Shown piece by piece: positions 1 to 58,975 of a stretch of 64,000 bases of DNA. Both the position numbers and the translations under genes were made by a program. Source of the DNA: a bacterium (lineage in GTDB: Bacteria; Vulcanimicrobiota; Xenobia; Xenobiales; Xenobiaceae); contig JAFTAM010000096.1 of the NCBI GenBank assembly GCA_017458675.1, positions 10,210-74,209 on the forward strand, written 5' to 3'. Under the pieces are notes generated by a model. It saw only the letters and a program-made list of their open reading frames with translations. It made no database searches and had not been told where the DNA came from. Every line of letters begins with the position of its first letter. Positions within the stretch are counted from its first letter, which is position 1.

Positions 1-521
1 GGCTCCTTAAATTTAAATTATCAAAAGACATATCTCGGCCTATACCGCTTTTTCCCCTTCGAGCGGAAAATTGTATATCTTGCCTGTGCCGGCGGCTTTT
101 GTATTATTTAATAATATCCTGCGCTCAGCTGACGAAATATATTTAGCTCAAAAGAGCGCGCTGTCGGCAAGTTAACCAAAAGCAGCTTTAAACATGCATG
201 CTATGCACAGGTTTTGTTCTGTACAAGAGCGAACGTCCGAGTCATATGCAGCTGCGGAGTTAAATGCAGTACAAAACCGACATTGCGAAAACAAGCAGAA
301 CACGTTTGATAGATTCATCGCTGCGCGCTCAAAGACAGGGCAAACGTTTACAGGCATAATGCAGATATGCCGCAGCGCCATTTTCAGCGCAATACTGTCT
401 TAACTTAATGACTTTGCAAGGCGCTGCGGCGAAAACACCGCACAAAAGCGTATTCCGCCGGCCGGGAGAACGTCGGGCCGTTTGATATCGGCGATCTTTG
501 CGGAAAAGCGCTGAAGCTGAA

Positions 522-15440: not shown

Positions 15441-15451
15441 CGCGGCAGCCC

Positions 15452-16261
15452 TTAAGGCTGAGCTTCGCCTTCATGCTGATGTTCATGAGCCTCTGGCGCG
15501 GCCTCGGCTTTGCTTTCATGCTGATGTTCATGAGCTTCGGGCGCGGCTTCGCCTTCTTGCTGATGTTCATGAGCTTCGGGCTGAGCTTCGCCTTCATGCT
15601 GATGTTCATGAGCCTCTGACGCGGCTTCGCCTTCGCCGCTGTGCCGGGCATGTTCATGATGATGCTCCTGCTCGGCGTTTTTCAGCAGTTCGTCGCGGCG
15701 CTCCTTATTGCGTTTGCGCGGATCAAACATCTGTTCAGGGTGCTGTTTGTATTTTACGCAGCGGGCCCGGAAATTTTTGGCTATTGCGTTGTCCGGCTCG
15801 AGGATGAGCGCCTTGTCAATTTCTTCTATGGCGCCGTCGAAGTCTTTGCTGAAAAATAAGGATTCCGCCAGGATATAGTGGAGGTGGTAGGTGTCGGGAA
15901 TATTTTTGATGGCTTGGCGGTAGATCTCGATCTCTTTGTCGTATTCGCCTTCAAAGTAGGCGAAGGCGCCCAGCTCCAGGTAAGGGGTCAGCAGCTCGGG
16001 ATCCAGTTCCATGGCTTTGGCAAAGGACTGCTTGGCCGCGTCAATGCTGCCGGCTTCGATCATCTGATGGCCGAACTCGCACAGCTCAACGGCGTCGGCG
16101 ATCCTTTGCCGCTTTTCCAGGGCGGGAGGCAGAAGCCAGAGCATAACGGCTATGCCGACGACGGCCAGTACTGCTTCTATAATCTGAAGCTTCTTTTTTT
16201 TAGGGTCCTTGTAATAGGCGAGAAAAGGCATAAGGCGTTTTTCCTCAATAATTATTTGCAA
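15452..16261 (-). CDS. TPR-repeat protein with N-terminal TM helix and C-terminal His-rich tandem repeats (HEHQHEGEAxPEA)
   Basis: 269 aa. TPR-like helical repeats (AKQSFAKAMELDPELLTPYLELG, YRQAIKNIPDTYHLHYILAE). The C-terminal 60 aa are His/Glu-rich repeats. Confidence 0.7.
   Translation of the reverse strand: MQIIIEEKRLMPFLAYYKDPKKKKLQIIEAVLAVVGIAVMLWLLPPALEKRQRIADAVELCEFGHQMIEAGSIDAAKQSFAKAMELDPELLTPYLELGAFAYFEGEYDKEIEIYRQAIKNIPDTYHLHYILAESLFFSKDFDGAIEEIDKALILEPDNAIAKNFRARCVKYKQHPEQMFDPRKRNKERRDELLKNAEQEHHHEHARHSGEGEAASEAHEHQHEGEAQPEAHEHQQEGEAAPEAHEHQHESKAEAAPEAHEHQHEGEAQP
15461..15640. repeat. Imperfect 39-45 bp tandem repeats (4 copies) encoding the His-rich tail
   Basis: CATGCTGATGTTCATGAGC recurs at 15471, 15516, 15555 and 15594. 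Confidence 0.75.
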
Positions 16262-29241: not shown

Positions 29242-29319
29242 CGGAGCATAGCGCAGTCTGGATAGCGCACTTGCTTTGGGAGCAAGGGGTCGCCGGTTCA
29301 AATCCGGCTGCTCCGACCA
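29242..29319 (+). tRNA. tRNA-Pro (anticodon TGG)
   Basis: Hand-folded cloverleaf: acceptor CGGAGCA/TGCTCCG, D-stem GCGC, anticodon loop TTTGGGA, T-loop TTCAAAT, CCA encoded. Confidence 0.85.
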
Positions 29320-29337
29320 TTATTAGGGTAAGAACGA

Positions 29338-29413
<76 letters not shown>

Positions 29414-29422
29414 ATTTTATAC

Positions 29423-29500
29423 GGTGGATATAGCTCAGTTGGTTAGAGCGCCGGTCTGTGGAACCGGAGGTCGTGGGTTCGAGTCCCACTATCCACCCCA
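29423..29500 (+). tRNA. tRNA-His (anticodon GTG) with genomically encoded G-1
   Basis: Acceptor GTGGATA/TATCCAC preceded by G-1, anticodon loop CTGTGGA, T-loop TTCGAGT, CCA encoded. Confidence 0.85.
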
Positions 29501-29508
29501 TGATATCT

Positions 29509-29583
29509 GGGTCGCTAGCTCAGTGGAAGAGCATCTGACTTTTAATCCGAGGGTCACAGGTTCGAGTCCTGTGCGACCCACCA
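29509..29583 (+). tRNA. tRNA-Lys (anticodon TTT)
   Basis: Acceptor GGGTCGC/GCGACCC, anticodon loop CTTTTAA, T-loop TTCGAGT, CCA encoded. One mismatch in the anticodon stem. Confidence 0.8.
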
Positions 29584-33023: not shown

Positions 33024-33209
33024 ATTCCCAGCGGCAGAAGCGGCAAGGCGGCGTCTGCCGTTCCGAGCGGAGAGGCTGTAATTGAATCGCTGGATCTTTC
33101 GCCGGATGGGCAGGACGGCAAAAAGACTCTCATTCTGAGCGGAGCGAAAAATCTTGCGTATTTGAGCCGCTAAACTCATTAGGCCGGATTCGACAGAACG
33201 GCCGGTATC

Positions 33210-40531: not shown

Positions 40532-40639
40532 GCTGAGCAGTTTTTAACTCTGTAAATATGAACGGCGGCAGGTTCTCTGCCGCCGTTCCGCATATTGCGC
40601 CATTTTTTTGTCGATATAGCGCCGCGAAGACTTTGTCAA

Positions 40640-41180
40640 ACATGTTTTGCGTATTATCGTTATGCCGGTTTTGTTTTGTGCTTCGCTCCGCGACTGCGCT
40701 TCGCTCACGACGCTCGCTTTAGTGCAAAACAAAACCTGTGCAAAGCGTGTCTGCTGAAAGCCTGTTTTTGCTCAGCACGCTCGGCGTGTTTTCGCTATGC
40801 CGGTTTTCTTTGCCGTTACCGCTCCGCGCTCGCTTCGCTCGAATCTCCGCGTACACGTCAAAGAAAACCTCTATTAAGCATGTATGCTGAAAGCCTGTTT
40901 TTGCTCAGCATGCTCGGCGTGTGTTCGCTATGCCGGTTTTCTTTGCCGTTACCGCTCTGCGCTCGCTTCGCGCGAATCTCCGCGTACACGTCAAAGAAAA
41001 CCTCGATTAAGCATGTCTGCTGAAAGCGCGTTTTGTCAGCAAGCTCTGTTTGTTTTTGCTATGCCGGTTTTCTTTGTCGTTACCGCTCCGCGCTCGCTTC
41101 GCTCGAATCTCCGCGTACACGTCAAAGAAAACCTCTATTAAGCATGTCTGCTGAAAGCGCGTTTTTGTTCAGCATGCTCC
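40640..41180. repeat. Tandem array of 131-133 bp units (about 4 copies, first diverged), each with an internal 11-15 bp inverted repeat
   Basis: The GCTGAAAGC anchor recurs at 40753, 40886, 41019 and 41150. Each unit has GGTTTTCTTTG...(about 50 nt)...CAAAGAAAACC. The diverged copy has GGTTTTGTTTTG...CAAAACAAAACC, which is compensatory. Confidence 0.85.
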
Positions 41181-41183
41181 GCG

Positions 41184-41210
41184 TGTCATTCTGAGCGCCG
41201 CGAAGAATCT
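41184..41210. repeat. Copy of the dispersed REP-like element (GTCATTCTGAGCGCCGCGAAGAATCT)
   Basis: Same element at 33128-33157, 39204-39226, 42998-43026, 53290-53317 and 53354-53384, with an inverted partial copy at about 53428-53445. Confidence 0.6.
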
Positions 41211-42997: not shown

Positions 42998-43026
42998 TGT
43001 CATCCTGAGCGCAGCGAAGGATCTTT
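42998..43026. repeat. Copy of the dispersed REP-like element (GTCATCCTGAGCGCAGCGAAGGATCT)
   Basis: Matches the 41184 copy with 3 substitutions. Preceded by a partial duplication (CTTGTCATCTCAAGC). Confidence 0.55.
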
Positions 43027-43737: not shown

Positions 43738-45699
43738 TTATCTGTGGCCTCTGCGTCCGCCGCCGACGTGCGTCGAGGAATGAGACGAAGAGTGCGAGGG
43801 CCTGCTCACCGAGTGGGTCGAGGTGCGCGGTGTGGAGCTGTAGCTTGATGAGGGCCTGCTCACCGAGTGGGTCGAGGTGCGCGGTGTGGAGCTGTAGCTT
43901 GAGGATGGCCTGCTTACCGTGCTGCCGGAACTGCGAGGCGAAGAGGTGTAGGAGGGGGTGGACTGCGTTCTTACCGTATAGGATGATGAGCGCGGGGACG
44001 AGGTATAGGAGGGAGTTCCGAAGATATTGGTTTTTGACCTGGACGGAGCCGGCGAGGGGTTATAGGTCTTGGTAGGCGAGTTCTGAACCGTTACCGGAGA
44101 CGATACATAGGAAGGTCTGGAAGGGCTGGAGCCGCTTCGGCCCGAGTTTACTGAACCGGATGGGGAGTAGGACTTGCTGGGGTTGTAAGACCTTGCCGGA
44201 GCAGATGACGAACTTCCGGAGGGCTTGTAGCCTGGAGGCGCGATTCGGCTGCCGGAGCTTTGCGTCGGCGCGGAACTTTTAAGCCTGGCGGGATCAAACG
44301 TGGGATGGCTGGCTGAAGCGGGCTTGCTGACTGCGGCGGGTCTGCTGGCTGAAGCGGGTCTGCTGACTGCAGCGGGCCTGGCTGACGAACCTACCGTGCT
44401 TGAAGGGCGGCTGGGCGTATACTGCGGCCGGTTGGCGGTATTGGTCTGAACTCGGGAAGAGCTCGGAGAATTCTGAGATTTGGGAGCAGCGGGCAGATTG
44501 GGAGTACTGCTGTAAATTTTGCTGCCGTGATGAGCCGGACGGGCAGGCTGAGCGCTCGTACCGATATGGCTGGGCTGACTGCCGGAATTGATGCGGTTGG
44601 GCTGATATCCGGGATTAGGGCGTGCGCTCTGAGGACGGCCGTCGGGGCGTTTAGCTGAAGCTGCGGCGGTCTTTGTTTTGTTCATGCTGCTGCCGCCGAC
44701 CACTCCGTTATTGACGGAACGGCGCGGACCGTTGTGGATATAGCCGCCGCCGAGCTGTTCGCTGGGAATGGGCGAAGAAGCGTGATGATTGCCGCCCGGA
44801 TAATTATTGTGCCAGTGATGAGGATCGTGGTGGGGATCGTGATGATGGTCGTGATGATGGTCATGGTGCGGCGGATGGGGCATGGGCTTGGGGCGATAGG
44901 GTTCGGGACGCGGCGGCGGAGGCGGCGGCGGATAGTGACGGGGATGATCGTACCAGGGGTACCAGCGATGATCGTAATAGCGGTAATATCCGTAGCCGGG
45001 GCCCCACCACATGTCATGGTTGTACCAGTCCCAGGAGCTGGTGCAGAAGATAGCCGCGGTTACTAAAGCCAGACTGCCCCAGATGATGGCGGCGTCTGAG
45101 GTGTTCGTATAGGCGTAGCGGCTGGAGCCCGGGTAGTCGTAAACGACGACGGGATCGTAGGTGGGAACGACTATAGTGTCGGCGCTGGCCGGAGTAATAT
45201 AGATATATTCCTTTTCCTTGACAACTTTGACGTCTTTGGTCGAGGTCAGGGTACCGGTATTGTAGGCATTGTTGCGCAGCTTCTGGATGGAAGTGTACAT
45301 CTCGTCGTTTTTGTTGGAGAAAATGTAGGCCAGATCGTTGGTCCAGTCCATGTTTTCCGCCATATAATTGATGACGTCGGGAGTTACCACCAGCAGCGAA
45401 ACCACGCTTTCGTTCCAGTTTTTATATTTAACCAGATCGGAAATTTTATCGATGGGAACGTCGGAATTCGATTTGTACCAATTGTTGGCTTCTATAATCT
45501 GATCCGGATAGGTAGAAGCGATCAGCACACTCCCCAGCAGCGAATCCGGATAGAGAGCTATCGGAGCTAAAGTTTTATCTATATCAGTATAGACCGCTTT
45601 CTGTACCGTCGTCGTGCCGGCATAAGCCATGAAGGGCATTCCGAGGCTGACGGCGGCGCCTAGGGCCAGGCCTATAATTATTTTTTCAAACTTATGCAT
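43738..45699 (-). CDS. DUF3300-like secreted protein with poly-Pro, His-rich (HHDHHHDHHHD) and long Ser/Pro/Thr-rich repetitive tail
   Basis: 653 aa with a signal peptide. The N-terminal about 200 aa form a globular domain (LAPIALYPDSLLGSVLIASTYPDQIIEANNW). The rest is low-complexity with exact 18-aa repeats. Confidence 0.65.
   Translation of the reverse strand: MHKFEKIIIGLALGAAVSLGMPFMAYAGTTTVQKAVYTDIDKTLAPIALYPDSLLGSVLIASTYPDQIIEANNWYKSNSDVPIDKISDLVKYKNWNESVVSLLVVTPDVINYMAENMDWTNDLAYIFSNKNDEMYTSIQKLRNNAYNTGTLTSTKDVKVVKEKEYIYITPASADTIVVPTYDPVVVYDYPGSSRYAYTNTSDAAIIWGSLALVTAAIFCTSSWDWYNHDMWWGPGYGYYRYYDHRWYPWYDHPRHYPPPPPPPRPEPYRPKPMPHPPHHDHHHDHHHDPHHDPHHWHNNYPGGNHHASSPIPSEQLGGGYIHNGPRRSVNNGVVGGSSMNKTKTAAASAKRPDGRPQSARPNPGYQPNRINSGSQPSHIGTSAQPARPAHHGSKIYSSTPNLPAAPKSQNSPSSSRVQTNTANRPQYTPSRPSSTVGSSARPAAVSRPASASRPAAVSKPASASHPTFDPARLKSSAPTQSSGSRIAPPGYKPSGSSSSAPARSYNPSKSYSPSGSVNSGRSGSSPSRPSYVSSPVTVQNSPTKTYNPSPAPSRSKTNIFGTPSYTSSPRSSSYTVRTQSTPSYTSSPRSSGSTVSRPSSSYSSTPRTSTHSVSRPSSSYSSTPRTSTHSVSRPSHSSSHSSTHVGGGRRGHR
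43797..43904. repeat. 54-bp coding tandem repeat (2 exact copies plus decayed copies further 3') encoding SSYSSTPRTSTHSVSRPS
   Basis: GGGCCTGCTCACCGAGTGGGTCGAGGTGCGCGGTGTGGAGCTGTAGCTTGATGA occurs twice consecutively. Confidence 0.8.
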
Positions 45700-50970: not shown

Positions 50971-53175
<2,205 letters not shown>

Positions 53176-53289
53176 GTTTTCGGCATAAGAGCCGGAGGCT
53201 GCGGAGGGAATGTCACTGTACGGGGCCTGCGCAGCCGGATATGTTGGGCTGAAAATTTTATGTTGTCGTTCAGTCCGGCGACCGCATTT

Positions 53290-53445
53290 TGTCATGCTGA
53301 GAGGGCGAAGAAGCTTGTCTTTTTCGGCGGCCGCCATCGGCAGGCTTGGGGCGAAAGAAGCTTTGTCATTTTGAGCGCGCAGCAAAGAATCTGATATTTT
53401 AGGCAGGAAAAAGTCTGCTCCGGAAGTTCAGGATGACAGGGACCG
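53290..53445. repeat. Cluster of three REP-like element copies (two direct, one inverted partial) upstream of the RM island
   Basis: GTCATGCTGAGAGGGCGAAGAAGCT at 53290, GTCATTTTGAGCGCGCAGCAAAGAATCT at 53354, and an inverted CAGGATGACAG at about 53430. Confidence 0.5.
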
Positions 53446-53590
53446 CAAATTTTGCTTATATTATAAGTATAGGTCAGTATCTTTATCATACTTATGCGAC
53501 ATATATTTGTGCCGTTTCGTTTGTTTTTATTCAACGCAGCGTATTCGGTTTGCGTTGGCATATCTCTTAGAAAGCAGTCGGTAAATAGTT

Positions 53591-54604
53591 TTGAAAATAA
53601 ATAATCGCCGATATTTAGGCAATAAATATAAACTGCTTCCTTTTATTAAGAAGATTATTTCAGAAGAATGTGTCGACGTTAAGACCTTTTTTGATGTGTT
53701 TGCAGGTACTGGGGCGGTGGCGTCAGCTTTTTTAGATAAAGAACTGATAGTAAACGATATTTTATACAGCAATTATCTGGCCCATTTAACCTGGTTAAGC
53801 GCAGAAGCTTATAGCGGAGAAAAAATAGCCGCTTGCATAGATTTTTACAACAGTCTGAAAGATATAGCTTCCGATAATTATATGTCTGTAAATTTTGCCA
53901 ATACCTATTTTTCTTATGAAGTTTGTAAGAAAATCGGTTTTATAAGAGAGGATATTGAACAGAAATTTGCGGCAGGCTGTTTAAACAGGCGCGAACATGC
54001 AATGTTGGTGACTTCGCTGCTGTATGCTATAGATAAAATCGCCAATACCTGCGGTCATTACGATGCTTATCGTAAGAACGTTAGTTACTCGAATAACTTT
54101 ATTATGGAAGTTCCGGAAATAGAAAAGGAAGGTCTAAAGAGCAACAGCTTTTATACTGAAGATTCCAACGAGCTTGTAAAGAGAATTGTTTGTGACTTGG
54201 CTTATTTAGACCCTCCCTATAACAGCCGCCAATATTGTGATGCCTACCATTTACCGGAAAATATCGCCAGGTGGGAAAAACCGAAGGTCTACGGAGTTGC
54301 AGGGAAGATGGATCGCAGCGGTTTGAAAAGCGCTTACTGTACTCAAAAGGCTGTATCGGCCTTTGCTGATTTAATTAGCAAGCTGCGCTGCAGATATATA
54401 GTGCTTTCTTATAATAATACAGGCGAAGGCGCAGATGGCAGAAGTAATGCTAAAATAAGCGATGACGCAATAATGCGCATTCTATCGGCAAAGGGGCAAG
54501 TTACGGTGTTTTCTCAGTCATATAAAGCCTTTTCTGCCGGAAAGTCTGAGAATAATCATAATCAGGAAAGGCTGTTTTTATGCAAAGTCAATGCCAAATC
54601 ATAG
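53591..54604 (+). CDS. D12-class N6-adenine DNA methyltransferase (M1) of a Type IIS-like RM system
   Basis: 337 aa. Dam-family motifs: N-terminal RYLGNKYKLLP (SAM-binding) and the catalytic DPPY (LAYLDPPYN). AT-rich. Confidence 0.85.
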   Translation: MKINNRRYLGNKYKLLPFIKKIISEECVDVKTFFDVFAGTGAVASAFLDKELIVNDILYSNYLAHLTWLSAEAYSGEKIAACIDFYNSLKDIASDNYMSVNFANTYFSYEVCKKIGFIREDIEQKFAAGCLNRREHAMLVTSLLYAIDKIANTCGHYDAYRKNVSYSNNFIMEVPEIEKEGLKSNSFYTEDSNELVKRIVCDLAYLDPPYNSRQYCDAYHLPENIARWEKPKVYGVAGKMDRSGLKSAYCTQKAVSAFADLISKLRCRYIVLSYNNTGEGADGRSNAKISDDAIMRILSAKGQVTVFSQSYKAFSAGKSENNHNQERLFLCKVNAKS

Positions 54605-55503
54605 CTTCACCTTTAAATTATACCGGCGGAAAGGCCAGACTGTTTCCGCAGATTAGACCTTTATTTCCTGATTATATTAATACTTTTGTCGATCTTTTCT
54701 GTGGCGGCTGTAATGTAGGTATAAATACAAAAGCTGAACGGTATTATTATAATGATATATCCGAACCTTTAATTGGCCTTTATCAAACCTTTCTTGAAGT
54801 TTCAGAGGATGAACTAATAAGCGATTTTGATAGAATCATCAACAGTTATAATTTATCAGACAGTACAAAGCACACCTACGAATATTATTCCTGCAACAGT
54901 TCTGAAGGCTTGGCTGCTTATAATAAGAGCAAATTTGAAAATATAAGAGACGATTTCAATGCTCTCACCCAAAAAGATAAATACTATTATGAGCTGTTCT
55001 ATATGCTTATTGTTTTCGGATTTAACAATCAGATTCGTTTTAATAAGAATGGACAGTTTAATTTACCAGTAGGTAAAAGAGATTTTAATTTTAAGATACG
55101 AAGAAAGCTATCAGCTTTTTTAAAGGTCTTGAAAAAACAGAAGCCTGTAATTACTAATATCCATTTTAATGATTACGATATGTCTCATTTGAATGATGAT
55201 TGCTTTGTCTATTGCGATCCTCCTTATCTGATTGCTACAGCGGCATATAATGAAAATGGTAAGTGGACTGAAAAGGAGGAATATGAATTATTGGGTCTTT
55301 TGGATAGACTGAACGCAAAGAAGCTTCGTTTTGCTTTGTCAAATGTATTAAGTCATAAGGGCAAAGAGAACAAACTGCTAAAGCGGTGGACTGAGAAAAA
55401 CAGATATAAGGTTCATCATTTAAATTTTGGTTATACGAACTCAAATTATCATACTAAGGATAAAGTAAATCTCTCCGATGAAGTTTTAATAGTGAATTAT
55501 TAA
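54580..55503 (+). CDS. Second D12-class N6-adenine DNA methyltransferase (M2)
   Basis: 307 aa. LNYTGGKARL and VYCDPPYL motifs. Overlaps M1 by 25 nt. Confidence 0.85.
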   Translation: MQSQCQIIASPLNYTGGKARLFPQIRPLFPDYINTFVDLFCGGCNVGINTKAERYYYNDISEPLIGLYQTFLEVSEDELISDFDRIINSYNLSDSTKHTYEYYSCNSSEGLAAYNKSKFENIRDDFNALTQKDKYYYELFYMLIVFGFNNQIRFNKNGQFNLPVGKRDFNFKIRRKLSAFLKVLKKQKPVITNIHFNDYDMSHLNDDCFVYCDPPYLIATAAYNENGKWTEKEEYELLGLLDRLNAKKLRFALSNVLSHKGKENKLLKRWTEKNRYKVHHLNFGYTNSNYHTKDKVNLSDEVLIVNY

Positions 55504-55516
55504 GGTTGGTGAAATT

Positions 55517-57334
55517 ATGGAAACTTTGTGGAGTATGAGTACGACGGTTCGTGAAGCGGAAAGAATAATTGGATTTTTGCAGACCGCTTTAGAGCTGGAT
55601 GGTGAAGTCTGGAATAAAGATAATCAAAAAAAATTTCAGATTTTACTGATAAAAAACAGACAGTATCTAAATGATCCGGACAATACGCAGTCATTCAGTA
55701 AGCTGTCGGCAGAACAAGTCTCGTTACTTAAAGATAAATCTGTACGAATGACTTACGAACAGGCGAAAGAGATATTTGAAGCCAAAGATTATAATGATCC
55801 TCCTATGCGCGGCAGACAGTCGATGTCTCCTTTAACAAAATTAGGTTTGGTCTATATTGAAAAAGATAAAAGGGTGGCAGTGTCTGATGTAGGGCATAGA
55901 TTGATCAATGGGGATATTGATTTCTCTGATTTTATGTTGGAAGCGCTTTTAAAATTTCAGTATCCCAATCCTTATGAAAGCGGTTTTAAAACTTGGGATA
56001 CAAAGCCGTTTATAAATACTCTTCGTTTAATTAAGCTTGTAAACGAAAAATGCAGAGAAAACGGTTTAAAGGAAAAAGGAATTTCCAAAATTGAATTTGG
56101 CATATTCGCTTTATCGCTGCAGTCGTTTGAACTGGTTGAAAAAACTGCGGCTGAAATTTTAGAATTCAGAAAGATGTATGAAGCTTATACCGATGAAGCG
56201 TTAAGAGATAAATATATAAGCGATTATATTAAGGAGTATTTAGGCGCATTTAAAAATCCTGAAAAAAATATCAAAGAATATACCGATAATATGATTCGTT
56301 ATTTAAGGTTGACAAAATATATTTACATCAGAGGTAAATATGCTAACACCTATATCGACCTTGAACCCAGAAGAATGACTGAGATTAATTCCATATTGGA
56401 GGCAGATGATGGAAGCGCACAAGCTTTTTCAGATGAAGAGTGGCGTAACTATATGGGTATATACGGAAAGTATAGTTTGCCGTTTGAAACTGTCGAAAAA
56501 CTGTCAGAAATAGTCCAGGGTATTCAGCATGATATCAATAGAATAGAAGGTAAAATTGGCTTAAAACTTACAAGGATAGAATTATGCAGTCAAAAAGAAG
56601 CTTTGAAGCAACAGATAGATAAGCTGAGATTATACAGAACTGAGCTGCAGAATCTGGAACTAAAGAAAGATTATCACGAAGATATTAAAAAAATTGAAGA
56701 AGCTATAGAATCATTAGAAGAGATAAGAAAACGCAATAAAGCCGGGTTGTCAAAAAAATTCTCCATAGAATTGGAAAAATGGGCCAATGTCGCTTTAAAT
56801 GTTATAAACGACGCCATACTTATTAAACCAAACTATCCCGTCGGCGACGATAATGAACCGATTTATACTGCTCCGAACGGGGCGCCTGATATAGAATGCT
56901 ATTACGATAGTTTTGGAGCAATATGTGAAGTTACCATGCTGACGAGCAGAGATCAATGGTACAATGAGGGCCAGCCGGTAATGCGTCATCTGCGACAGTT
57001 TGAAGTCAAAAACAGCCGTTTGCCTAACTACTGCTTATTTGTGGCGCCTTCTTTACATATAGACACCGTAAACACTTTTTATATGTCTGTAAAATATGAA
57101 TATGAAGGTGCAGCGCAAAAGATTATTCCTATAACGATTTCGCAGTTAGAAAATATTTTAGAGGCAGTTAAGCAATTGATTATAAAAGGGAAAACTTTAC
57201 CGCATTCTGAGATAATGAAACTGTATGATCGCTGCTGCAGTATTGCCGGCTTGAGCAGCTCGAAATTATGGTTAGAACATATTGCAAAAGAATTAAATTC
57301 CTGGTTTGAAGGGCTGGCTGCTTTGGCAGTATAG
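55517..57334 (+). CDS. Putative Type IIS restriction endonuclease or nicking enzyme of the AlwI/PleI/MlyI/N.BstNBI family
   Basis: 605 aa, which matches the size of N.BstNBI/PleI. A PD...(D/E)xK-like segment (APDIECYYDSFGAICEVT). Sits downstream of two Dam-like MTases, the signature arrangement of asymmetric-site IIS systems. Confidence 0.55.
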   Translation: METLWSMSTTVREAERIIGFLQTALELDGEVWNKDNQKKFQILLIKNRQYLNDPDNTQSFSKLSAEQVSLLKDKSVRMTYEQAKEIFEAKDYNDPPMRGRQSMSPLTKLGLVYIEKDKRVAVSDVGHRLINGDIDFSDFMLEALLKFQYPNPYESGFKTWDTKPFINTLRLIKLVNEKCRENGLKEKGISKIEFGIFALSLQSFELVEKTAAEILEFRKMYEAYTDEALRDKYISDYIKEYLGAFKNPEKNIKEYTDNMIRYLRLTKYIYIRGKYANTYIDLEPRRMTEINSILEADDGSAQAFSDEEWRNYMGIYGKYSLPFETVEKLSEIVQGIQHDINRIEGKIGLKLTRIELCSQKEALKQQIDKLRLYRTELQNLELKKDYHEDIKKIEEAIESLEEIRKRNKAGLSKKFSIELEKWANVALNVINDAILIKPNYPVGDDNEPIYTAPNGAPDIECYYDSFGAICEVTMLTSRDQWYNEGQPVMRHLRQFEVKNSRLPNYCLFVAPSLHIDTVNTFYMSVKYEYEGAAQKIIPITISQLENILEAVKQLIIKGKTLPHSEIMKLYDRCCSIAGLSSSKLWLEHIAKELNSWFEGLAALAV

Positions 57335-57335
57335 A

Positions 57336-57380
57336 TAAAAAACTGCCGTCTCCTTATGGCTGGGAGGCGGCAGTTTTACT
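57336..57380. terminator. Bidirectional terminator between the RM island and the convergent NAPRT gene
   Basis: A-run-AACTGCCGTCTCC-TTATGGCT-GGGAGGCGGCAGTT-TTAC. Confidence 0.55.
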
Positions 57381-57391
57381 TTGCGTTTGCG

Positions 57392-58975
57392 CTAATCTTC
57401 GAGACGGTCGCGGAACTTTTTAATGAGCTCCACCTTGGCGTCCAGCAGCTTGGTGGTCAGGGACACGTGATAGATATGGGGATTGTGCATGCGCAGAACG
57501 CCGGTGTCGAGGTAGTTGAGGTCGGCGGTGCGGTTGGCCTTCAGCTCCTGCAGAGAGGGAGCGGGACGGGTGCGGCCGCCCTTGTCCCAGACGGTCTGGA
57601 GCAGCGGCTCGACCCGGCTGATTTCCTGTCTCTTTAAGCGGCGCATGACGTCTTTTTCGACGGGATGATGGAGTTCGAGGACCTCTTCGGAGGCGGGTTC
57701 CTCGTCGGCGAAGCCCACCAGATCGGCGGTGGCGCGGCCGCGGCTGTCGTAGATGCGCCAGGCGGTCTTGTGGCCGGGATTGATGAGCTTGGCTATAGAG
57801 TTGGAGAACTTCATGGCCGGGACCCATTTGCCGTCGACCTGCAGGGCCACCAGCTTATAGACGCCGCCCAGGGCGGACTGGCCGTCTGAGGTTATCAGGC
57901 GGGTGCCCACTCCGTAGGTCAGCCTGTCGATGACCTTCTGAGGATCGGCGCCGTTTCGGGGAGCGTCCTCGCGGATCTGTATATTGATCTGGTTGATGGT
58001 CATTTCGTCCAGGTCGTTGGATAAAACTATGCAGGCCTTGGGGAAGCCGGCTTCGTCAAGAACCTTGGAGACCTGAATGGCCAGATAAGCCAGGTCGCCC
58101 GAATCGAGGCGCACGCCGACAGGCTCATAGCCTTTGGAGCGCAGGTTCTTAAAGACTTTAATGGCGTTGGGCAGACCGCTCTTCAAGCTGTCGATGGTGT
58201 CGATCAGGAGCAGGCAGTTGTCGGGATAGAGATCGGCGTAGGCCTGGAAGGCCTCGTATTCGCTCTTGCCCAGGGCCAGCCAGGTCTGGACCATAGCATG
58301 GGAGTGTGTACCCTTGGGAGGCAGGCCCATGGCGTAGGACTGACCGACGTTGGAGGTATAGTCGCAGCCTCCGATAACAGCCGCTCTGGCCCCGAAGTTG
58401 CCTCCGTAGCCGTGGGCGCGGCGCAGACCGAATTCCATCAGGAGCTTGCTGCCGCAGCTGTGGCGGATGCGGGAGGCTTTAGTGGCGATTAAGGTCTGAA
58501 AGTTGATGATATTTAAAAGGGTGGTTTCCAGAATCTGGGCCATGGCCAGGGGACCTTCGACCATGGTTATCGGCACGTTGGGATGGATTACCCGGCCTTC
58601 GGCCATAGCTTTGACGGTGAGCTTTCTGAAATTTCCCTCTTTTCTGAGCCAGTCCAGAAATTCGGGACAGAAGACGGGATTGCCCTTAGCGTCCTTTTCA
58701 CCGGCTAAATAGTGCAGATCGTTATCGTCAAAATGAGCTTCTTTCATCCAGTCCAGCAGCGATTCCAGACCGGCGTATATGCAATATCCGGCCTTGTGGC
58801 CGCCGTAGTTGGGATATTGGCGGAAGAAGTGGTCGAAATGGGCTCTCTGCTCATGAATGCCGGCTTTGAAATAAAGCTGCGCCATGGTCAGCTGATACAT
58901 GTCGGTAAACAGAATGCCCTGAGTAAGGCGGTTTAGCGTTTGCTGATCCATAAAAGATACAGGTCCCTTTCTCAA
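57392..58975 (-). CDS. pncB: Nicotinate phosphoribosyltransferase (large, eukaryote-like NAPRT type)
   Basis: 527 aa. N-terminal LFTDMYQLTMAQ, a central GTHSHAM-containing TIM-barrel-like region. Stop/start overlap with the hexokinase gene (ATGA). Confidence 0.85.
   Translation of the reverse strand: MRKGPVSFMDQQTLNRLTQGILFTDMYQLTMAQLYFKAGIHEQRAHFDHFFRQYPNYGGHKAGYCIYAGLESLLDWMKEAHFDDNDLHYLAGEKDAKGNPVFCPEFLDWLRKEGNFRKLTVKAMAEGRVIHPNVPITMVEGPLAMAQILETTLLNIINFQTLIATKASRIRHSCGSKLLMEFGLRRAHGYGGNFGARAAVIGGCDYTSNVGQSYAMGLPPKGTHSHAMVQTWLALGKSEYEAFQAYADLYPDNCLLLIDTIDSLKSGLPNAIKVFKNLRSKGYEPVGVRLDSGDLAYLAIQVSKVLDEAGFPKACIVLSNDLDEMTINQINIQIREDAPRNGADPQKVIDRLTYGVGTRLITSDGQSALGGVYKLVALQVDGKWVPAMKFSNSIAKLINPGHKTAWRIYDSRGRATADLVGFADEEPASEEVLELHHPVEKDVMRRLKRQEISRVEPLLQTVWDKGGRTRPAPSLQELKANRTADLNYLDTGVLRMHNPHIYHVSLTTKLLDAKVELIKKFRDRLED

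Follow-up and report, generated by a model that had tools for sequence, protein, structure and literature searches.

A probable horizontally acquired AlwI-family Type IIS restriction-modification cassette with two D12-class methylase genes in an uncultured ruminant-gut bacterium

Systems of the SfaNI, AlwI and BspD6I types, together with a nuclease from Caldicellulosiruptor, are the described relatives against which the present locus can be read. The methylase of S. xylosus TMW 2.1324 makes both G6mATGC and GC6mATC; GCATC methylation is abolished when the enzyme loses its C-terminal 173 aa, and its N-terminal domain works alone (PMC10030836). SfaNI itself comes from E. faecalis (PMC9465063). 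The AlwI system, which recognizes GGATC (4/5), has two Dam-class domains in a fused methylase, M.AlwI, one for each strand (PMC4081073, PMC3526280), and MlyI, a GAGTC system, has a single GASTC methylase (PMC4081073). The Caldicellulosiruptor enzyme R.Cal02329 (CsaDORF2754P) was assigned to GCATC by its authors (PMC9799307). The GAGTC nickase Nt.BstNBI/BspD6I forms the larger half of a heterodimeric enzyme whose 186-aa partner is encoded by the adjacent gene. The BspD6I mutants E418A and D456A are inactive (PMC6261011).

The window that we analyzed, a stretch of 64 kb, holds in its list of open reading frames a cassette of three codirectional plus-strand genes, M1, M2 and R, at positions 53591 to 57334 (Table 1). 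M1 and M2, in different reading frames, have 25 nt in common, and 13 nt separate M2 from R; two different D12 methylases stand directly upstream of the nuclease in one operon, and the same three genes are called in public assemblies of the same organism. The preliminary description had proposed a Type IIS-like restriction-modification island with two D12 methylases and an endonuclease of about 600 aa from the AlwI/PleI/BstNBI family, and both parts of that proposal held. The matches of the methylases to PF02086 and of R to PF09491, the fold match of R, the base composition and a related genome in which the site is empty support this reading, and we put the probability that the cassette is an AlwI-family Type IIS system acquired horizontally at about 0.9.

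Table 1. Positions of the cassette genes and neighboring features in the window.
Feature	Position	Strand	Description
Terminator-like hairpin	53262-53282	+	Downstream of the host PFK gene, on the host side of the junction
Dispersed element of about 26 nt, two direct copies	53289-53315, 53362-53392	+	Looser copies of GTCATTCTGAGCGnAGCGAAGAATCT
AT-rich leader of the cassette	53440-53590	+	With a sigma-70-like site; no controller (C) protein gene
M1	53591-54604	+	337 aa, TTG start; D12-class N6-adenine methyltransferase
Domain-linker junction	54576-54606	+	1 nt missing compared with the fused L038 gene; nucleotide comparison by eye, protein alignment
M2	54580-55503	+	307 aa; Dam/T4-Dam-like D12 methyltransferase
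R	55517-57334	+	605 aa; AlwI-family Type IIS restriction endonuclease
Bidirectional intrinsic-terminator hairpin	57339-57377	.	16-bp stem, A-run before and T-run after

The assignment of R rests on profile, structure and catalytic residues alike. An HMM search of its product against RE_AlwI, a check that had been proposed from the start, gave a match to Pfam PF09491 from end to end (profile positions 1 to 440 of 441, E = 3.5e-75, 254.1 bits against a cutoff of 23.1), and 2,051 homologues were found at an E value of at most 1e-5 among the candidates scored. Its AlphaFold model (pLDDT 86.7) matched N.BspD6I (2EWF/6QNZ) over the whole length in Foldseek (TM 0.74 to 0.78, E of about 1e-27), in agreement with a PDB sequence match to the same enzyme (E = 7e-24). 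The model predicts a FokI/BspD6I-like architecture, in which a recognition region at the N terminus is followed by a helical linker and then by a single PD-(D/E)XK domain at the C terminus. The catalytic residues are E420, D458 and E471-V-T; E420, D458 and E471-V472 do not vary across 40 homologues and align with E418, D456 and E469 (EVT) of BspD6I, so that the E...PD...EVT signature is common to both enzymes.

Both methylases belong to the D12 (alpha, Dam-family) class, with a PF02086 MethyltransfD12 match, an N-terminal SAM region of the xxGxK/FxGxG type and a DPPY motif in each. M1 carries the motifs RYLGNK and DPPYNSRQY and matched PF02086 with an E value of 5.5e-30 (105 bits) and the PADLOC model PDLC03292 at positions 78 to 410 of 722 (E = 1.9e-125). 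M2 matched PF02086 with an E value of 1.7e-34 (120 bits) and TIGR00571 with 154 bits (cutoff 114.85). In the fused SfaNI-type methylases, the N-terminal domain is the counterpart of M1 and the C-terminal domain that of M2. As for the working of the system, M1 and M2 would protect the host DNA by methylating a 5-bp asymmetric site, each at the adenine of one strand, while the N-terminal domain of R would bind the same site and its single C-terminal PD-(D/E)XK center would cut a few bases to one side, destroying incoming DNA that lacks the methylation. The activity of all three proteins is a prediction. If R behaves like AlwI and MlyI, two R molecules would have to dimerize transiently to cut both strands, and such dimeric cutting is likewise the presumed mode of R.

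Next, we compared the cassette with the SfaNI-type systems of S. xylosus TMW 2.1324 (PMC10030836), S. aureus SAP055A and E. faecalis pW208. All have two alpha-class Dam-family domains, an M1-type domain followed by an M2-type domain, and an RE_AlwI-family nuclease as partner. Three fused methylases, from S. aureus SAP055A, E. faecalis pW208 and P. megaterium, were 44 to 50% identical to M1 and M2 (48 to 50% for M1). The recognition hairpin of M2, GFNNQIRFN..G.FNLPVGKRDF, was the same as in these three enzymes at every position shown, and a family-specific insertion was common to M1/M2 and all three. The identity of 44 to 50% reaches the characterized S. xylosus enzyme through the S. aureus gene, by way of gene sizes and the S. 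xylosus methylase reverse primer, 25 of the 27 nt of which agree with the S. aureus gene at its 3′ end. The E. faecalis plasmid enzyme is probably SfaNI and the S. aureus plasmid enzyme probably a GCATC enzyme. The likeness has limits, in that their methylases form one chain of 700 to 710 aa with an N-terminal helix-turn-helix (HTH) extension, whereas the present cassette encodes two proteins without it. Their nucleases, of 651 to 701 aa, belong to the PADLOC model PDLC03557 (the E. faecalis pW208 nuclease scored 1,024 bits against it) and are about 30% identical to R over 70 to 116 aa of the catalytic core only.

Among the characterized nucleases compared, the closest to R was R.Cal02329, with 30% identity over the full length (E = 6e-68); the recognition region was 30 to 37% identical, against 30% for the catalytic domain. 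Both proteins begin with an N-terminal WSxSTTVR motif and have PDLC03393 as their best PADLOC model. The two methylases that accompany R.Cal02329 differ from M1 and M2 in being beta-class enzymes, with DPPY near the N terminus, and not D12 enzymes. Judged from the methylase and nuclease comparisons together, GCATC/GATGC is the most likely site of the cassette, as in SfaNI, with about an even chance of being right; another site of the form NNATC, such as CCATC or GGATC, is somewhat less probable. M1 is predicted to act on the GATGC strand and M2 on the GCATC strand, and the truncation of the S. xylosus enzyme suggests such a division of labor between the two. The comparison, which drew its references from GCATC, GGATC and GAGTC systems, does not tell GCATC from CCATC, the BccI/HpyC1I type of site. 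In addition, its basis is a methylase identity of 44 to 50% and a nuclease identity of 30%, distances at which sites can differ. Avoidance statistics on the candidate sites, also proposed in the preliminary description, gave no clear avoidance of any in the 64-kb window (observed/expected ratios of 0.88 for GCATC, 0.87 for GGATC, 0.96 for CCATC and 0.76 for GAGTC).

We also evaluated whether the cassette could be a true isoschizomer of AlwI/BinI, in which M1 and M2 would methylate GGATC and GATCC and R would cut GGATC (4/5). M2 is strongly similar to T4 Dam (1YFJ, GATC; E = 8e-49) and keeps all mapped base-contact residues (K11, R116, P126 and R130), of which R116 is the equivalent of the E. 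coli Dam residue R124 that reads the fourth base pair (PMC4417163). AlwI likewise has a nuclease of the same Pfam family and pairs a Dam-like methylase domain with an RYxGxK-type domain, each serving one strand. However, an arginine of the R116 type fixes merely the ATC core, which is common to GCATC and CCATC. Moreover, the A. lwoffii plasmid pH7-48, our stand-in for AlwI, encodes a methylase (1,006 bits, presumably against the M.AlwI model) that is just 26 to 28% identical to M1/M2, has the domains in reversed order and carries a Dam-like hairpin, CFNGLYRVN..FNVPFGKY, that differs from that of M2. The similarity of its nuclease to R lies chiefly in the catalytic core (32% over 134 aa), with a recognition region 20 to 28% identical, and the pH7-48 system includes a controller protein. 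GGATC, one of the two sites named in the preliminary description, is less likely than GCATC on the methylase and nuclease comparisons with AlwI-type and SfaNI-type systems, and we consider a true isoschizomer unlikely.

Another reading is that R recognizes a sequence, or cuts at a position, new among characterized AlwI-family enzymes, or that it is a natural monomeric nickase that works without a partner subunit. The nearest characterized enzyme compared has only 30% identity to R, and the methylases have at most 50% to enzymes of labeled specificity; we regard this reading as distinctly unlikely.

A further alternative is that the cassette is decaying or partly inactive, a frameshift or the loss of the controller having disabled part of it, with R silent or being lost. 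The relative L038 is informative here: its nuclease is 70% identical to R and adjoins a single fused methylase of 643 aa, the N-terminal half of which is 67% identical to M1 and the C-terminal half 59% identical to M2. Relative to this fused gene, the cassette has lost 1 nt at the methylase linker, and M1 and M2 are, on the sequence comparison, its frameshift-split form, with the M1 stop codon (TAG) at 54602-54604 and the M2 start codon (ATG) at 54580. L038 also has a gene for an HTH_26 controller (C) protein, whereas neither the leader nor the cassette contains one (a tblastn search with the L038 protein gave no match there), and close relatives of the cassette were not seen in other strains. 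Nevertheless, all three reading frames are full length with intact catalytic motifs, the break lies precisely at the boundary of two autonomous domains, and M2 keeps its ATG with a Shine-Dalgarno-like GGAAAGG ahead of it. In nature, M1 and M2 are separate genes in an S. epidermidis plasmid as well, and many homologues of 303 to 312 aa are separate too; in S. xylosus, furthermore, the N-terminal methylase domain functions alone, and an intact R beside a dead M2 would be toxic. Decay is accordingly quite improbable.

That R is instead a GAGTC-specific enzyme of the PleI/MlyI/N.BstNBI type, and perhaps a natural nickase that biotechnology could use, as the preliminary description had speculated, is highly improbable: the only solved structural relative of R is the GAGTC nickase N.BspD6I and its best PADLOC model, PDLC03393 (E = 3.7e-106), is described as "Type II nicking endonuclease," but R is 20 to 21% identical to BspD6I, MlyI-type systems have one GASTC methylase against two Dam-class enzymes here, and a pure nickase would be a poor restriction barrier. 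The label of the model says nothing on activity, because R.Cal02329, from a GCATC restriction system, matches the same model (E = 6e-84). Nor did the window offer the separately encoded small subunit with which Nt.BspD6I works: the list of open reading frames has none of about 186 aa in the interval from 57334 to the host gene that converges on R, and tblastn of the window with the catalytic domain of R found R alone. The earlier suggestion of a nicking variant thus found nothing positive in its favor.

Returning to the cassette as an acquired AlwI-family system, we looked at its surroundings. It lies between two convergent host genes, for PPi-phosphofructokinase (PFK, whose reading frame ends at 53175) and nicotinate phosphoribosyltransferase (NAPRTase), and its GC content of 31 to 42% stands against 56 to 64% in the flanks, as the preliminary description had observed of an AT-rich block. 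In the goat-rumen metagenome-assembled genome RGIG3558, the closest genome compared (NAPRTase 78% identical to that of the host), the gap between the two genes is just 89 bp plus a hairpin, and the cassette is absent. Base composition and this one syntenic empty site (n = 1) bear out the horizontal acquisition that had been suggested. The bidirectional terminator placed at the end of the block is also there, as a hairpin common to the convergent R and NAPRTase genes, and the hairpin between NAPRTase and PFK at the empty site (L006) is similar to it. Upstream, a sigma-70-like site, ATGACA-18-TATATT, occupies 53433-53462. The three copies of a dispersed element reported there were right just in part: two are direct copies, and the third is a degenerate inverted fragment near 53404-53438, recognized by eye. 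The consensus GTCATTCTGAGCGnAGCGAAGAATCT has 3 matches elsewhere in the window at up to 3 mismatches (0 expected), and the elements sit in a GC-richer, host-like spacer outside the AT-rich cassette.

Uncultured relatives place the cassette in varied settings. The nucleases of the gut-metagenome relatives P0002 to P0120 are 58 to 72% identical to R. The L038 operon has 68.7% nucleotide identity to the cassette from the start of M1 into R, the homology beginning only at 53592, and differs in its setting, a defense island with GmrSD and an integrase. In L043, a relative on a viral contig, the order is R and then a fused methylase.

The cassette is a routine new Type IIS system of a well-known kind, low in novelty, and its importance is small: one more such system, from an uncultured ruminant-gut bacterium, in a family of thousands. 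It does illustrate cleanly how a single-base frameshift at the linker splits a fused two-domain methylase. Moreover, R is a candidate for an SfaNI-like enzyme whose nuclease lineage is distinct, and the comparisons show that methylase and nuclease lineages have been shuffled among the systems of the GCATC/GGATC group.

The cassette made up of the two methyltransferase genes M1 and M2 and the endonuclease gene R is a real, intact-looking, horizontally acquired AlwI-family Type IIS restriction-modification system. Profile matches, predicted fold, GC content and an empty site in a relative support the main reading of the preliminary description, and three public assemblies that belong to this same organism have identical calls for the three genes. 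Running the R product against family profiles, as had been suggested, gave a match to RE_AlwI (Pfam) along the whole profile (E value = 3.5e-75). The solved nickase N.BspD6I matched R by sequence (E value = 7e-24), and an AlphaFold model of R built from 40 homologues (pLDDT 86.7, pTM 0.81) superposed on it over the whole chain in Foldseek (E value ~1e-27, TM 0.74-0.78). Residues E420, D458 and E471-V472 of R showed no variation in the homologue alignment and are equivalent to E418, D456 and E469-V of BspD6I, whose mutants E418A and D456A are catalytically dead (PMC6261011).

Both methylases matched PF02086, the D12-class N6-adenine methyltransferase family (M1, E value = 5.5e-30; M2, E value = 1.7e-34). 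M2 also passed the NCBIfam Dam-family model and was similar to phage T4 Dam (E value = 8e-49), while no solved relative of M1 was found by sequence. The best database match to M2 was 57% identical, with the exact M2 sequence absent among the matches listed; for R, in contrast, a 100% entry was present and the next match was 72% identical. The low value for M2 may be an effect of the limit on candidate sampling; alternatively, divergence may have gone further in the methylases than in the nuclease.

Features of the window, with positions and strands
Feature	Position	Strand	Remarks
Dispersed ~26-nt element GTCATTCTGAGCGnAGCGAAGAATCT	33129-33154, 41185-41210, 42999-43024	+	3 strict matches vs 0 expected by chance
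GTCATTCTGAGCGnAGCGAAGAATCT, further copy	311-338	-	
GTCATTCTGAGCGnAGCGAAGAATCT, two copies	53289-53392	+	Between PFK stop and AT-rich leader
Four-tRNA cluster	29242-29580	+	Rfam RF00005, 66-75 bits
M1	53591-54604	+	337 aa, TTG start
M2	54580-55503	+	307 aa; 25-nt overlap with M1, different frame
R	55517-57334	+	605 aa
Hairpin, 16-bp stem	57339-57377		Between convergent R and NAPRTase, common to both; A-run and T-run either side

The host bacterium is uncultured and comes from the ruminant gut. GC content is 0.31-0.42 within the cassette block versus 0.56-0.64 in both flanks. Upstream, the gene for PPi-phosphofructokinase (PFK) ends with a stop codon at 53175, before the cassette's AT-rich leader; downstream, the hairpin follows the end of R by 5 nt and is shared with the nicotinate phosphoribosyltransferase (NAPRTase) gene. 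Within the species collection, the nearest genome is the goat-rumen MAG RGIG3558 (NAPRTase 78% identical), which has NAPRTase and PFK convergent, separated by 89 bp that hold only a hairpin. Because RGIG3558 has the flanks without the cassette, the ~3.9-kb AT-rich block must have been inserted here. Neither an integrase or transposase gene nor a flanking duplication was found at the cassette in the window, and the best candidate for a target-site duplication or direct repeat at the island ends was an 8-mer, at chance level. When a strain-level empty site was sought through exact matches to the R, NAPRTase and PFK proteins, all contigs retrieved came from the same organism, and the cassette was present wherever these reached that far. 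The host PFK gene itself (50971-53175, + strand) encodes 734 aa and is internally duplicated, its halves aligning with each other and with a half-gene at the RGIG3558 locus.

The dispersed element contains a short ATTCT/AGAAT inverted repeat and is REP-like. Of the three copies that had been placed upstream of the cassette, two were recovered, and the third proved to be a degenerate inverted fragment only; the copies upstream of M1 lie in host-like sequence, outside the cassette. In the Rfam search, neither the element nor the cassette matched a family, the four tRNAs being the sole hits. A tandem array at 40632-41186 (3-5 copies of ~133-bp units, 63-97% identical) stops immediately before the element copy at 41185. 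Short-period tandem repeats at 43796-43957, 44308-44379, 44822-44876 and 15451-15636 (units of 54, 18, 12 and 39-45 bp) probably lie within coding sequence.

A nuclease 70% identical to R (P0016) was found at a gut-metagenome locus, L038 (3862-9718), where the homologous system comprises an HTH_26 controller, a fused methylase and the nuclease. A GmrSD (Type IV) gene comes directly after this system, and an integrase gene and AAA_15/HEPN genes are nearby, so that L038 is a composite defence island. Among IMG/VR viral contigs, an alignment scan gave one relative, at 55% identity, and a single-protein scan gave no match. The L038 methylase is one 643-aa protein holding both domains in the order M1 then M2 (67% identical to M1 and 59% to M2). 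At the linker junction, one base has been lost in the window relative to the L038 nucleotide sequence, so M1 ends at a TAG; M2 starts at an in-gene ATG with GGAAAGG just before it. Comparison of the two loci thus indicates that M1 and M2 are a split version of a fused methylase. The split enzyme is probably functional: the break separates two domains that are autonomous, M1 and M2 exist as natural separate genes in other systems, the Staphylococcus xylosus enzyme has an N-terminal domain that is active by itself, and R is intact. Unlike L038, the window cassette is without an HTH controller gene upstream, and no remnant of one was found upstream of M1.

As to the recognition site, we put the probability of GCATC/GATGC at about one-half, judging from sequence; another NNATC sequence is a credible but lesser prospect, and anything else is improbable. 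Fused methylases from S. aureus SAP055A, E. faecalis pW208 and a plasmid of P. megaterium show 44-50% identity to M1 and M2. All three have a recognition hairpin identical to that of M2 (GFNNQIRFN..G.FNLPVGKRDF) and share an insertion with it; both features are absent from T4 Dam, E. coli Dam and the A. lwoffii enzyme. The reverse cloning primer for the S. xylosus TMW 2.1324 methylase matched the S. aureus SAP055A gene at 25/27 nt, exactly at the stop codon. In E. coli, the S. xylosus methylase produced G6mATGC and GC6mATC, and minus its C-terminal 173 aa it still methylated only GATGC (PMC10030836). With a score of 1024 bits, the E. faecalis pW208 nuclease nearly coincided with a model in PADLOC that derives from REBASE, and E. 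faecalis is the source of SfaNI (PMC9465063). Along its entire length, R shares 30% identity with R.Cal02329, a Caldicellulosiruptor nuclease to which its authors assigned GCATC (PMC9799307), with the recognition region conserved at least as well as the catalytic domain. On the P. megaterium plasmid pPmC-129-1 (830-8936), the fused SfaNI-type methylase lies between genes for two different nucleases of the AlwI family, 706 aa and 652 aa long; the two nucleases are only distantly related, each having been compared with the S. aureus and E. faecalis nucleases and not with the other.

M2 keeps the T4-Dam contact residues, which are predicted to fix an "ATC" core common to GCATC, CCATC and GGATC. 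GGATC, one of two sites proposed in the preliminary description, was favoured first for the T4-Dam similarity and then dropped, since SfaNI-type methylases have the same hairpin as M2. AlwI (GGATC) does use two Dam-class domains (PMC4081073, PMC3526280), and an A. lwoffii plasmid system scored 1006 bits on the presumed M.AlwI model. However, the A. lwoffii methylase is 26-28% identical to M1/M2 with its domain order reversed, and its nuclease is similar to R mainly in the catalytic core. GCATC is better supported than GGATC on both the methylase and the nuclease sides. For CCATC, the literature offered no usable labelled system, and an H. pylori plasmid locus is IS-disrupted. GAGTC, the other proposed site, is unlikely: in the literature consulted, the one GAGTC system described, MlyI, works with a single methylase, specific for GASTC (PMC4081073), and identity between R and BspD6I, which recognises GAGTC, is no more than 20-21%. 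The suggested avoidance statistics were run on the 64-kb window, where counts of GATC, GGATC, GAGTC, CCATC, GCATC and GGATG against Markov expectation gave ratios all within 0.76-1.14, with no discriminating power between sites.

The further idea that R is a nicking variant did not gain support. In the Nt.BstNBI/BspD6I heterodimer, of which the nickase is the large subunit, the gene for the small subunit adjoins that for the large one (PMC4081073), and no small-subunit gene or paralogue was found in the window. The best PADLOC model for R is described as "nicking endonuclease", a label without weight because R.Cal02329, a restriction enzyme, matches the same model. By analogy with AlwI and MlyI, the default expectation is that R would cut both strands via transient dimerisation. 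The cassette adds another member to the already known AlwI-family kind.
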